In this document: piece after piece, positions 8,401-46,883 of the stretch
Numbering within the stretch: position 1 is the first letter of the stretch
Layout of the letters: each line of letters begins with the position of its first letter
Assembly (NCBI GenBank): GCA_030264375.1
Contig: JASCQW010000119.1
Location: forward strand, 47,720,636-47,783,222
DNA: 62,587 bases
Reading direction: 5' to 3'
DNA from: Carcharhinus longimanus
Taxonomy: Eukaryota
The notes under the pieces: generated by a model
The model's input: the letters and a program-made list of their open reading frames with translations, nothing else
Database searches by the model: none
Told to the model about the DNA's origin: nothing
Program-made: the position numbers and the translations under genes

Positions 8401-9981
8401 TATCAGGCTGCAATATTAATGAATATATATTTGTGGGGAAGGGAGGTAAACCTTAGAAAAAGGGAAATGCTGGATATACAAAACAACTGTTTGAAAGAGC
8501 AAGGACAGATTAACACTTAACTGGAGACCTTTAATCAAAACCCAAGCTTTACTTATGCAGCATTCGAATTACAAAATTGAAGCCCTCAAAATTCTGTCCA
8601 AGTAACTTGACAGTTTTTGGCACTGTTGTGGAAACTGTAAAATCCTCAATTTTTCCTGACAGTTTCACTCCCACCATCCAGAAGTCTGAACCAATACTAT
8701 TACATGCTTTATAGAGAGAACTGACAAGTCAGTTATTTCTGTCCCCACATATCTGAAGATTTTACATATCGTCAGTCACTGTGATCATCAGTTAGGCTAA
8801 ACAATATGCACATAGAATTTAATCATGTTCATTCAGTGTTACTGTTTTTGGAATGATTTGCAGCGCTTGTGAATTGTTAGTTTGCACTGTTGTTTTCTGT
8901 GGCACCAGACTTCGATTCTGGATGCAAAATAATGGCACATGGCTAAATATTTTGGTGAGGNNNNNNNNNNNNNNNNNNNNNNNNNNNNNNNNNNNNNNNN
9001 NNNNNNNNNNNNNNNNNNNNNNNNNNNNNNNNNNNNNNNNNNNNNNNNNNNNNNNNNNNNGGTGAGGAGCATTTACCTTATCAAAACTTCAGCTAGAAAT
9101 CTTGGCAAGACTCTTCATGTTTAGGAAGTCAGCATGCTAGTTATTTTGAACCCTGATCTGTGCTTAAACATCTGCAGAAGTTGCACCAAGTTGCATTGTT
9201 TTAATTTTATCTAAATGAAACTTTGGATTTCTTATTGTCTGAGTGTCATGCAGTGTAGTACAGTCCCAAACAGATTAGGACGCTTCCGGTTCTAAACAAT
9301 AATATTGCATGGATCCATGCGTTTGTACATAAATTATAGTTTCAGCATCTCTGGGCTAGAAAGGAATTTCATTGTCTTGTGACCATAGCTGTAAAGTTTG
9401 TGCGTGTAATAGTCAGGATTATGCTAAGTTTTAAGGCTTTTTTAGAAGATAGCCTAGCGCCATTTGTTAGCTTGGCTTCTGGTGAAGAACGGTCATTTGG
9501 TTGAAGTACCAGAGCATTGCCACTGTTTGTTTTATCAGAGACTGTATTCTGTGCGTGTTGCCGTTATCGCGAGGGGATAAGTAAAAGTATCTTTCAGTAT
9601 ATCTGTGGTAGTGAATTTATCTTCAATTAGAGGACAGGTGATAAACTGAGCCCTCTATCCCTATGGGGGAAGACCTGTTATTAATTTAAAAAGCTGGTTT
9701 TGTTATGACTAAGATGTTAGTCCATTAAAATGCACAATGCACTATAGATTATTCTATTCTGTCTTCATCTCTTCAAAAAGTGTCAATTTACAAGGGTCTT
9801 CCTATAAACTGTATCTTAAATATTAATGTGGCCATAGTTTGCAGTTTGACTAATTGCTTTAAAGTCCTGTGGATTAAAGAACATGCATCACGTATATTGC
9901 TGCACATGATCTTTTTCTTTTCAACCTTTTTGTGCTGTCAGGTAATGGTTGACTTGGATTTCAGTACATATCTGTCCACAG

Positions 9982-10064
9982 GTGTTGGAAAATTACTCAG
10001 ATGCTCCAATGACCCCCAAACAGATTCTACACGTTATAGAGACTGAAGGACTCAAAGAAATGAG
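9982..10064 (+). CDS. ASXL1: ASXL1 exon 2 (83 nt, phase 0 to 2), HARE-HTH: [27 protein letters not shown]
   Basis: ccacag|GTGTTGGAA...ATGAG|gtcagt. The translation is nearly identical to human ASXL1 [27 protein letters not shown] as recalled, and the 83-nt length matches. Confidence 0.96.
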
Positions 10065-10334
10065 GTCAGTTGTGGTGAATGGATTTGCTAGGAGAATGTC
10101 AATGGGTTTTGTTAAATATAAATGCTGAATTTGAAAGCAGGGAAGAGTCCTATCTGACCTAGTCTCCTCTTGTAACCTACAGTAATAGATGGGAATCTGC
10201 TTGAGGATTGTTTTATTTTAAATTTGAATCCTAAAGTTATAACTTTTAAAGTCTTTTTGTTTTCCTTTCTTGTGGCCATTATTGGCACTGATGCTTGAGC
10301 CTGCTTTTGTATGTATTCTCCATGGAAATCAGAG

Positions 10335-10880
10335 TCAGTAGCTAAAATATTGACTCACCAAAGCCTGTCCAACATTTACAATGCACAGGTCAAGAATGTG
10401 CGGGGGAACTTGTCTGAATGAGTGTGTAGCTCCCAACAATGCTGAAGAAGCTCAATGCCATCCAGGACAAAGTAGTCCACTTGATTGGCAGTCCATCCAC
10501 AAACATTCACTTCTCCATCGGCCGAGCGCAGTGGTACAATTCCTGCGATGTGTGCCATCTACAAGATGAACTGCAGGAACTCCTAAAGGCTCCTTAGATT
10601 GTAACTTCCACATCCATGAGCACTACAGTCTAGAATGACAATGGCAGCAGATGCATGGGAATACCACCATCTGGAAGTTCCCCTCACATAACATCCTGAT
10701 TTGGAAATATCCTGGCATTCCTCACTGTTGCTGGATCAAAATCCTTAAACTCCCTTCCTAACAGCTCGAGGTCCATATCCAACATGTGGACAACAGCTGT
10801 TCAAGAAGGCCGTTCACCACTTTCTTAAGGACAATAAATGCTGACCTAGCTAATGATGACCACATCCTATAAAATTATTT
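10335..10880 (+). mobile_element. LINE 3' fragment of a second CR1/L2-group family
   Basis: Homologous to 14535-15935 (GCCATCCAGGAC..., tail AATAAATGCTG.CCTAGC...CACATCC). Confidence 0.7.
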
Positions 10881-12406
10881 TTAGAAAATGGGACTTAGTA
10901 AGCTTCTCAAGGTACATTATCAAAGAAGGCTATGTTGAGCAGTAGAAATGTCATTACTTGTCAGTTTGTTTTTAAAACTATAACAAAAACTATAAGGCAG
11001 GGCTAAAAGGCTGTACAACAGCTGGCAGTGCAAACTAAAGGGAGGACACGAGAGGTGGAAGACAGTGGCACACAGATTGTGACATGAAGCTGGAGACAGT
11101 CACAGAAGTAGACTGGAACAAGGCCTTAGAGATTTGTAAATGAGAATTTAATCATGCAGTGATCTTTTGGAGATCATTAAAGGCAAAGATTGTGGGGAAC
11201 GATACAAGGATCTGTTTTGTTGGAGTTTTGGATGAGTAGGAGTATATGTAAGGCTCAGCAAGGAGGATGTTGGAAAGATGAAGACAAAGGCTACATCCAA
11301 CGGCCAGATCAATATCTAATAAAACCCATTCAAGCCTTGGCTCAAATGTCAGTCATGGTTGAAATTTGAACCGCAGTTTATCGAATGGACATTCAGTAGT
11401 CTTTGTAACTAGAACTGTTAGGCTGTGTACTCTGATTTTTAATGGACGTTGAAGACTTGCTTATTCAGTTGGAAGAAAGAAAAAGGCTTAAGATTATCAA
11501 TTGTTTCAGTCAATGTTTGATTTTTGTTCCAAGGAGACAGTCAAAACACAGTTCATATTAAGTATTGTCTATTTCTCCCATATGCCTCATTTAAATGGCC
11601 ATTAATATTCAGATGCCCCATATTTGCAGCCAATTACTGCCAGACTCACTTCCATTTTAGCAAGCAATTGCTTTATTTGTGTCTCGATAGGAAGAAAACA
11701 AAGAAGAAACAAATACTTGGATTGATATAGTGTTTAAAACGTGCTCTTCAAGTATCAGAATGTTAATGCCCAATTAGTTACTGACTTGCAAAGAGGTTTG
11801 TTGTGTAGACAAGCAAGGTAAATGGAAATTTCTTCTCAAGGCCTCCAGTTTATGGTGAGGAAGTCCAATTCTATTTCATAATATGGGATTCTGGAACAAC
11901 TTCTTGGGGTTTTGAGGATTGTGTTGTACAGCTCTGTGCGTGAAACTCACATCAGTGGTGTTCTGTGTAGTTAATGTGTTGTTAGTGATTTAAGTTTGAC
12001 ATTCTGCAAATTCATCCTGACAGTTAACAAAAAAATTTTAATCCCTAAATGTGATTTTCTATGAGCCCCTTGCGCTGCTGAGCTCAGTATCTCTACTTAG
12101 TCATTTCTTGATTGCTATCTTACTGATGTTGATTTTAATACAGTTAGAAACCAAAGAAATTAAACCAAATATTTTAAGATTCATTAGTATAAGAAGAATA
12201 ATTTTACAATGTTTATCACAAGGTCCTTATTTAAACAGTTTTATTCAGCTTCTGGTAAATTCCAATTTAATTTCAATTGTATTTAATAAAATAAAAATTA
12301 CAAAACATTTTTCCTATAGTATGTTTTATTTTGATAATATATGTTGGATAACACTAATCATTGTTTTTTCTTTTTCATGTCCATGTTTTTGATGCAATGG
12401 CTGTAG

Positions 12407-12409
12407 AAG
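12407..12409 (+). CDS. ASXL1: ASXL1 exon 3, 3-nt microexon AAG (adds the Arg of KEM-R-SGTS)
   Basis: ctgtag|AAG|gtaagc, preceded by a long AG-free U-rich tract, a CACTAAT branch-like motif (12352-12358) and TGC (12393-12395). ATG AG|A AG|T GGA restores the MRSG of human ASXL1, which has a 3-nt exon here as I recall. Confidence 0.9.
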
Positions 12410-14264
12410 GTAAGCACCAGTTAAGCCAAAAATATGCTGATAAATACAATTTTGTATTTATGTAACATGTCAAAATACAAGAGTAAATTTCTGTTTAGAA
12501 CATTATGGTAATTTGTAATTCTTCGCACTGCTCGGAATGCTTTGGTAGCAGATGATTATGATTGTCCTTCTAGCAACTGCTGCTGCACAATAGTGATTTG
12601 TGATTCTGCTTCCTTAAATCATCGCATTCTTGGTGCAATTTAATGCATTCCATTATCATGCCAGCTTATTGTACTGACTGACACCCTTACAAAAGCAAAT
12701 ACTCCCCTATTCGAGGAAAAATGCTTCAACAGCATTTCAGTGTACATAGTGTGTGTGTATTGGATGCATTCAATTCATTCATATGGGCTTGAAGTAAACA
12801 TTAGATTTATTGATCCTGGATTATATAGTGTTGCATGTTTTCAAGCACTGGAAATTAAAAAAATTCACTGAGCAGTTGGGCACAAGAGTTACTTTATTTT
12901 AAATTTAACCCTAAAAGTGGAGGCCCTTTTTATGTCATGTTATTTGTTTATAAAGGTGAGATTAATTGAATTTATGGTATGAAATAAATATTAGATATTT
13001 GAAGTTTATAGTCACTATTTCGTAAATCAAGGGCATTGTAAAAATATTAATCTGTAGATATGATGAATGAAGCTTGCACATTTCAAATTTATTCTTTCTG
13101 GGGCAAAAACAGGCAGATGTGGAATCCATTTAGGTCAAACCACTGAGAACAGTTAAACAATTTCTTGTATGTTGCAAGAGGATTTCCTAGTCCTCATTGA
13201 AAGCACGTTGCTTTTAATCACCCAGCATCCACTTCCTCCTGAATGGTAACTCAAATAAAGGAAATAAGGTTTTGATTTCCACAGATCTTGTTGAATAATC
13301 AGTGCATTCTCCCAGTTTAGTGCTGCTTTGAAGCCAAAATCACTTCAACCCAATACTCAACTTGCATAGACTAACTCTGAAATAGATGATGCTCTCTCCT
13401 TTTAAGAGTCTTGCTTCATTTTGCCCTGGAGTCAGGATGGTGCTCCCTGATAATTTGGGGCCATATATGCAATGACGTGAAATTGATTCATACTGAAATA
13501 TCCAATTGTAATAGAAACACTCCCCAAAAAATAAACATGCAATCTTAGTATTTTAGATTTACAACTAATGTGACAAATAACTTGTATGATGGATTTAAGA
13601 CAGGTTAGATAACAGTTTAAAATGACAATTGACTTATTGGTCAAATTTGTGCAGTGTTCCATGCTCTCTTTACTTACAAACTTGATGAACAGCCCACTTA
13701 CAATGTTTGATCTGTTTTGTCTGTGTGTTCAGTGGACTAAACAATAAGCTGCGTAAAATGCTGGTTGCTTTACTGATTTGCTGGGTCTGTAGTTCATTTA
13801 TTCTTTTCCATCAATTTCTCATCATATCAAGAAAAAAATGTATTTTTATTCATGATGGGCAACCGTACTAATGCTCATGGCTTATGTAATACTGTTTTGT
13901 GTTTACTATTTAGCTTTTCTTTCAATGCACTGCCATCAGTTAGTGGGGATGCTACTTGCGTAAATAAATAGTCCCATTAATTTCTCCAGTCTAAAAGTTG
14001 ACAAATAGCCTGGACCTAATGGACTTCAAGAGTTTTAAGAGGTAGCTTTAAGAGGATAGTGGATCCCTTGGTTTTGATTGTACAGCATTCCATCTATCGT
14101 AGATCAATGGACAAGAACATATTGAGAGTGGCTGCTTAGTTGTTGATTATATGCAAAGTACAGGTTGAGCTTTGGAAATTAAAGGGATTATGTGGATGAG
14201 ATGGAAAGATGAGGTTGAGGTAGAGTAATGTTTGTGCCAGACAATGACCATTTCCGTCAAGACA

Positions 14265-15029: not shown

Positions 15030-15736
15030 TGTTAGAGTACCAGATTAGGGACCCCAAAGTATGTTGTGAAGCTCAACTAGGCCCCAATAATTTTTCTATG
15101 TTTGATGTGTGAGAGTATAAATTGTACTTCATTCCAGATCTGATTTCTATTGACATACTTGACAACTTTTATCAAAACAAACTTTAGTAATACAATTAGC
15201 TTAATTTTAGAAATATTTAAACATGACCAGAGACAATTGTTAATGCTAACCTGTCTCAATTAGTTCTAATTCAAGCAATATTCCTTTATAGATTTTAAAC
15301 TCCTCTTCAAAATGAATTAGTAACACACAGGCTTACATGCTTGTACTTGGGCTGCTAGTCCAGGAGCTTCCAGAACACCCCTGTGGAGAGAGAGAAATCT
15401 ATTTTATCTAGCAGGCCCGAGACAGAGACACTGATGCTGCTTTCAGAACCTGGCAGAAATTGCCTGCTTTTCCCTGTAAGATTAGCTCCTCCCTTTAAAC
15501 ACATGATATTGTCAATCAACCTAAACAAAACCCTACTCTGAAATCCCAGGTGAAAAAAAAAATGAGCAGAAGTGCATTAACTCAGATTAAAACAAACACA
15601 TCCCTAACTGAAATTGATCATGAGCTTCCTGTTTTGCAGACAAATCGGTACTGTGTAAAACAAGAGCTCAATTCGAACGTATTCGTCACAAGAAACATGA
15701 TATAAATACATTTCTTAAAGGCACAGTATCATCTCA
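15030..15736. mobile_element. Candidate solo LTR (707 bp)
   Basis: TG...CA termini, flanked by CTTG/CCTG (4-bp TSD with one mismatch). It splits the host LINE cleanly, and a related sequence begins at 54727. Confidence 0.65.
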
Positions 15737-34052: not shown

Positions 34053-34161
34053 TGGAACTTCTCCCTTGGCATGTCTGAATGCTATGCTTCACACTAATTC
34101 TCGTGCAGATGATGGAATGTTTTACAGACTTCCAGGGCGGATGGGTCTTTATACATTGAAG
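34053..34161 (+). CDS. ASXL1: ASXL1 exon 4 (109 nt, phase 2 to 0): (S)[36 protein letters not shown]
   Basis: ttatgtag|TGGAACT...TTGAAG|gtaaga. Contains the ASXL-family HARE-HTH motif [13 protein letters not shown]. Confidence 0.97.
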
Positions 34162-46776: not shown

Positions 46777-46883
46777 CGTCACCGGTGTCTGATGAGAGTT
46801 CCTCAAATGCGTCATGTTCCACTGATATTCAAGGCAAACAGGTGTCTCCTGGCAAGCAGAACAGTCACAAAGCAACCCAGCAG
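46777..46883 (+). CDS. ASXL1: ASXL1 exon 6 (107 nt, phase 1 to 0): (A)SPVSDESSSNASCSTDIQGKQVSPGKQNSHKATQQ
   Basis: aattag|CGTCA...CAGCAG|gtaagt. DESSSNASCST matches the ASXL1-type DETSSNASCST. Confidence 0.93.

Follow-up and report, generated by a model that had tools for sequence, protein, structure and literature searches.

Human ASXL transcripts consist of 13 exons, the third of which is only 3 nt long according to a figure legend (PMC5644247, Fig. 1). circASXL1 has been described as a product of exons 2, 3, and 4 (PMC11234283). The ASXL1 exon numbering used in PMC5063410, as we understand it from the accessible text, omits the 3-nt exon, and the accessible text of PMC3721406 does not discuss exon 3. 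Our literature searches, with subscription papers and VastDB outside their scope, returned no paper on the regulation or the function of the 3-nt exon of ASXL1. The HARE-HTH domain has been reported to bind DNA with selectivity for 6mA in vitro (PMC6591016). Two human ASXL1 chains in the Protein Data Bank (8h1t_N and 8svf_L) contain the sequence KEMRSG; the matches found by sequence search of this database were full-length ASXL1 constructs only. The 3-nt exon 3 of ASXL genes is already known, and shark RefSeq proteins already carry the arginine that it encodes.

The accessible mouse microexon table of PMC7821500 lists annotated 3-nt exons at chr2:153354649 (AAG), chr12:3445451 (AAG), and chr18:22406970 (AAA), assigns all three to the constitutively included MicroExonator cluster I1, and sets their difference flags for brain, heart, muscle, and adrenal to FALSE. 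The discovery coverage is 0 in two of these three rows. The rows carry no gene names, and queries by gene name or Ensembl gene identifier gave no match, so that the rows were located by coordinate; from these coordinates we presume that they are Asxl1, Asxl2, and Asxl3, respectively. This assignment is backed by the triplets, which agree with the proteins, and by the length of the upstream intron, which is 2,378 nt at chr2 and 2,342 nt at the shark locus described below. The part of the table that was counted contains 32 rows with NAG triplets (AAG 11, GAG 11, CAG 8, TAG 2) and 14 rows with other triplets (AAA 2, GTG 6, ATG 2, GAA 0, CTG 4, AAT 0). NAG exons are the commonest 3-nt exons in mouse among the 10 of 64 triplets counted.

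Two other described systems bear on exons of this size. RS-exons, which accompany recursive splicing, have been defined in PMC6224609 and PMC5126111. For SRRM3/4-dependent microexons, UGC occurs in 79% and 74% of two target classes (bioRxiv 2024.09.17.613571); the main text of that preprint does not mention ASXL1, and its supplements could list ASXL exons.

The DNA analyzed here is a window of 62,587 nt from the shark Carcharhinus longimanus that covers part of ASXL1 on the forward strand. Exon 1 lies about 500 nt upstream of the start of the window, and the later exons extend past its end. Exon 2 (9982–10064) is 83 nt long, closes with ATG AG in phase 2, and is followed by the donor GTCAGT; exon 4 (34053–34161, 109 nt) encodes the remainder of the HARE-HTH domain. 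The peptides of both exons are 100% identical to shark ASXL1 records. Pfam finds HARE-HTH, ASXH, and PHD domains on the shark ASXL1 protein, as expected for a member of the ASXL family. The span from exon 2 to exon 4 measures 23,988 nt, of which intron 2 contributes 2,342 nt and intron 3 contributes 21,643 nt. The region around 10300–10970 within intron 2 is a high-copy repeat that is matched by thousands of contigs. Mapping of contigs onto positions 9700–12700 covered 4 of 23 runs, all as assembled contigs and none recorded as RNA. One contig of 6,220 nt, from run X1, matches exon 2 (9981–10064) with 0 differences and has no further piece on this stretch; that it represents RNA is a guess. 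The bin that holds the microexon drew no contig from runs X1, X2, or X6, a result that carries no weight for an exon of 3 nt.

Between these two HARE-HTH exons lies a triplet AAG (12407–12409) that is preceded by the acceptor TAG of intron 2 (12404–12406) and followed by the donor GTAAGC of intron 3 (12410–12415), which matches the consensus at 7 of 9 positions. The triplet is thus bordered by a canonical AG and a canonical GT. We consider it very probable that this AAG represents exon 3 of the shark ASXL1 gene and behaves as a conventional microexon that adds Arg47 and is included in most transcripts. The last AG upstream of the acceptor is at 12318, leaving 85 nt (12320–12404) free of AG. 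This zone contains the heptamer CACTAAT (12352–12358), the likely branch point, with its presumptive branch adenosine at 12357, 49 nt before the end of the acceptor. A pyrimidine tract (12358–12392, 77% C+T) follows at a distance from the AG, and a TGC (12393–12395) occupies positions −14 to −12 relative to the exon. An earlier note on this DNA had described the same arrangement of acceptor, triplet, donor, AG-free zone, CACTAAT, and TGC, and the sequence agrees with it at every position. A branch point set far upstream with its pyrimidine tract, the long AG-free zone, and the strong donor would together allow the spliceosome to recognize an exon of this size. The short form of the transcript would then result from simple exon skipping, with exon 2 joined directly to exon 4. 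A second site that seemed to resemble this arrangement, CAGCAG-GTAAGT at 46878, was rejected because an ordinary coding exon ends there.

The triplet fits the reading frame. Exon 2 ends with ATG AG and exon 4 begins with T GGA, so that insertion of AAG yields the codons AGA AGT. The earlier note had proposed that the triplet toggles the protein between KEMRSG and KEMSG, and joining exon 2 to exon 4 with and without AAG gives exactly these two readings. The microexon completes the codon of Arg47 (AGA) and begins that of Ser48 (AGT). Arg47 falls inside the Pfam HARE-HTH domain (residues 11–82), where, judged from sequence, it is probably part of the turn that links helices 2 and 3 in the winged helix-turn-helix. 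A visual count among divergent relatives gives about 16 with the short spacing at the position of the arginine and about 9 with a longer one; this variation in length suggests that the loop tolerates such changes. An Atlas search returned clusters of HARE-HTH and winged-helix proteins with scores below 0.9, which we treat as leads only.

Protein records are the main source on the use of this exon. The shark ASXL1 set comprised eight clusters, with 69 records listed of 74 members; 32 of these records lack the exon 4 motif and 8 have a different upstream sequence, and both groups were set aside. The records that join the two flanking exons read MRS in 26 of 29 cases and MS in 3 of 29, counted among the 69 listed of 74. 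The 26 records with arginine represent 11 named species plus 2 Logan assemblies; none is from the species of the window. All 3 records without arginine are UniRef-only entries from Callorhinchus, which we take to be automatic gene models, prone to missing tiny exons. Among the RefSeq and Logan entries of the 69 listed of 74 members, we found no ASXL1 record that skips the exon. The statement that the exon is mostly included in shark is based on these protein records together with the mouse data, and RefSeq models and assembled contigs omit minor forms. Three catshark ASXL1 isoforms, which belong to the 8 records set aside for their upstream sequence, carry an insert of 12–13 residues at the junction of exons 2 and 4 that begins with arginine; a comparison of this insert with intron 3 of the window gave only a weak gapped match at 15387–15410.

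The mostly mammalian ASXL1 set was obtained from the best 120 of 712 matches by removing 4 sharks. The resulting 116 records, drawn from the best 120 of 712, divide into 54 with MRS, 1 with TRS, 56 with MS, and 5 with MSS. Logan-only records in the same selection (n = 10) read with arginine in 9 cases and without it in 1, a ratio biased by the order of the list, which follows similarity to an arginine-bearing query. In another set of 120 records, 72 have the short form, reading IS. Since many database models omit the exon, databases overstate the short form; some of the short forms are real and some are probably annotation misses. Pairs of isoforms from the same species differ by the arginine alone in 5 of 8 cases tested, and the other 3 pairs differ elsewhere too. 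The single-residue pairs comprise four from mustelid ASXL1 and the X1/X2 pair of catshark ASXL3. Their occurrence in mammalian ASXL1 and in catshark ASXL3 indicates that skipping does occur.

The genome contains two ASXL genes besides ASXL1. In ASXL3 (contig C61, position 53052162), the same sequence TAGAAGGTAAG stands behind an AG-free zone of 72 nt, which contains neither a TGC nor an ACTAAY motif. Exons 2–4 of ASXL3 are on this contig, and an ASXL3-like exon 1 is found on C72 (106852400), possibly because of a split in the assembly. Among 32 shark ASXL3 records, 6 read MRS, 12 read MS, and 14 are uninformative. KETRNG is the reading of amniote ASXL3 in 12 of the 15 informative records (29 in total) and in all 8 of the Logan records that cross the junction; one hippopotamus record reads KETRSG. 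The KETRNG reading implies that the amniote triplet is AAA, which lacks the second AG and turns the following serine into asparagine. The Logan records therefore also indicate that this exon is included although no second AG is present. The earlier note had cited KETSG of human ASXL3 as a case without arginine. This part of its argument does not hold, since ASXL3 does have the exon, as AAG in sharks and as AAA in amniotes. The short KETSG forms of amniote ASXL3 occur in gene models only and are absent from the Logan records, which, like the hippopotamus record, counts against the conventional reading of the exon.

Some ASXL1 and ASXL3 models contain an extra serine at this junction (MSS, TSS), and the row that we presume to be mouse Asxl3 gives the downstream exon two acceptors separated by 3 nt. 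There are hints that a tandem acceptor at exon 4 is real in amniotes; the exon 4 acceptor in the window has no tandem AG.

ASXL2 (contig C27, 74316611–74362878) offers only a weak candidate for TAGAAGGTAAG in an intron that includes 3,089 unread bases. This candidate, at 74358024, was rejected as a well-formed microexon because its AG-free zone measures only 17 nt and its pyrimidine tract is weak. Shark ASXL2 lacks the arginine in 7 of 7 informative records (13 in total), as does zebrafish asxl2 in 3 of 3 informative records; ASXL2 records from bony vertebrates include both forms. These sequences raise the possibility that the microexon was lost from shark ASXL2. The presence of the exon in both ASXL1 and ASXL3 of sharks suggests that it likely predates the duplications that gave rise to ASXL1, ASXL2, and ASXL3. 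An alignment of the introns of the three paralogues revealed no clear common motif beyond composition.

The chance that AAG is no exon at all, and that a different site or a shift of the splice point at exon 2 or exon 4 supplies the arginine, is very nearly negligible. Of 300 dinucleotide shuffles of the span from exon 2 to exon 4, 17 do contain the bare pattern YAG-RAG-GTRAG, and the real span holds 200 unread bases and three AG-RAG-GT sites besides the one at 12405. When an AG-free zone of at least 40 nt is also demanded, 0 of 300 shuffles of the same span contain the pattern, and the motif and the long AG-free zone together are beyond chance. Because only AAG or GAG can produce Arg-Ser, the candidates in the span are limited to these 4 sites; the one at 12405 alone combines GTAAG with a long AG-free zone, and the others lack both signals. 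A shifted splice is opposed by the absence of a tandem AG at the exon 4 acceptor and by an exon 2 donor that allows no in-frame shift of 3 nt leading to Arg-Ser. The recurrence of the same arrangement in the paralogue and in the mouse rows also argues against coincidence. A different reading accepts the site and assigns it to recursive splicing: exon 2 would be joined to the distal AG (12408–12409), the junction would rebuild a GAG-GTAAGC donor, and this donor would then be spliced to exon 4. The geometry permits such a ratchet, and the rebuilt 9-mer fits the consensus as well as the native donor of the exon does. Moreover, TAGAAGGTAAG is also present in shark ASXL3, for which catshark has an isoform pair that differs by one residue. 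The distal AG is directly followed by a strong donor, as at recursive sites, but this property is automatic for any exon that ends in AG. Since the donor consensus has AG at positions −2 and −1, every 3-nt exon whose donor fits this consensus resembles a NAGNAG acceptor or a ratchet point. On the same grounds, the second AG of the shark site would simply conform to the donor consensus and open a conserved serine codon, which leaves little for a ratchet to explain. The AG-GT is conserved in ASXL1 and absent from amniote ASXL3, where the triplet is AAA. The site also lies just 2.3 kb, about a tenth of the way, into the 24-kb span, so that a recursive step would hardly shorten it. No strong RS-exon donor is evident; the donor-like sites at 12508 and 12956 within the next 690 nt match 6 of 9 positions by a crude count. 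Neither the main text nor five supplements of PMC6224609 mention ASXL. Use of the distal AG would give the same mRNA as plain skipping, and mature transcripts therefore cannot separate the two routes. On this evidence from sequence, recursive splicing at the microexon is unlikely, and the resemblance to a NAGNAG double splice site is probably a by-product of its ordinary splice signals.

A tissue switch under the control of SRRM3/4 or QKI, in which a neural or muscle microexon would tune DNA binding through the arginine, seems to us improbable as well. In its favor, a branch point set far upstream, a pyrimidine tract, and a UGC between this tract and the acceptor correspond to the layout described for SRRM3/4 targets, and isoforms that skip the exon do exist. 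The earlier note had read the UGC as a mark of SRRM3/4 control. However, TGC occurs within 19 nt upstream of 72 of 198 YAG sites that have an AG-free zone of at least 20 nt in the same span, which places the TGC near the microexon at chance level, and the AG-free zone of the ASXL3 paralogue has neither TGC nor ACTAAY. The presumed mouse orthologues (cluster I1) show no neural-specific inclusion and no heart, muscle, or adrenal difference, and this constitutive behavior argues against SRRM3/4 control. The interpretation of ACTAAT as a QKI element fares no better: at 49 nt before the AG and directly 5′ of the pyrimidine tract, it occupies the place where a branch point would be expected. Short forms are nonetheless common in databases, which leaves some room for regulated skipping. 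We see only a slim prospect for a broader scenario, in which a one-arginine switch predates the gene duplications, the short form of ASXL1 arises by recursive splicing, the arginine alters binding to DNA or 6mA, and the paralogues have been retuned, as AAA in amniote ASXL3 and by the apparent loss in shark ASXL2.

We therefore return to exon 3 as a conventional, mostly included microexon. The proposal of a one-residue toggle within HARE-HTH that was retained from sharks to mammals survives in part: the 3-nt exon, the shared arginine, and the skipping isoforms stand, while SRRM3/4 control, the QKI element, ASXL3 as a case without arginine, and the ratchet find no support. The observation is mostly ordinary. 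The modest additions of this analysis are comparative and consist of the presence of the exon in shark ASXL1 and ASXL3, the AAA triplet of amniote ASXL3, and the apparent loss from shark ASXL2. If the arginine changed binding by HARE-HTH, the exon would constitute a single-codon switch in a gene of leukaemia and Bohring-Opitz syndrome and would deserve a direct test.

How does this exon compare with described systems? The mouse row at chr9:49531973, which we take to be the AAG exon of NCAM1, likewise contains a single AAG with the same AG-AAG-GT appearance; the title of one cited reference names "exons a and AAG". In contrast to the ASXL1 exon, it is developmentally regulated (cluster NN1) and belongs to a cell-adhesion protein. 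Recursive splice sites, RS-exons, and cryptic microexons repressed by the EJC, as far as they are described in the accessible parts of PMC5126111 and PMC6224609, share with the shark site a YAG beside a GT donor, and a recursive two-step route could in principle yield a very short exon. The known recursive sites consist of AG-GT with no intervening exon, are found far inside long introns, and owe their definition to an RS-exon further downstream, whereas the site in shark ASXL1 is the first AG past an AG-free zone and is followed by a conserved coding triplet. Among the constitutive mouse microexons of cluster I1, the presumed Asxl1, Asxl2, and Asxl3 exons (AAG, AAG, and AAA) are annotated and included (PMC7821500, accessible table). 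Intron 3 is 21.6 kb long in this shark and about 2.4 kb long at the presumed mouse locus. A close counterpart is exon 3 of human ASXL1, ASXL2, and ASXL3 (PMC5644247, Fig. 1 legend): it shares the family, the position in HARE-HTH, and the size, human ASXL1 also reads KEMRSG, and the shark exon differs from it only in the species.
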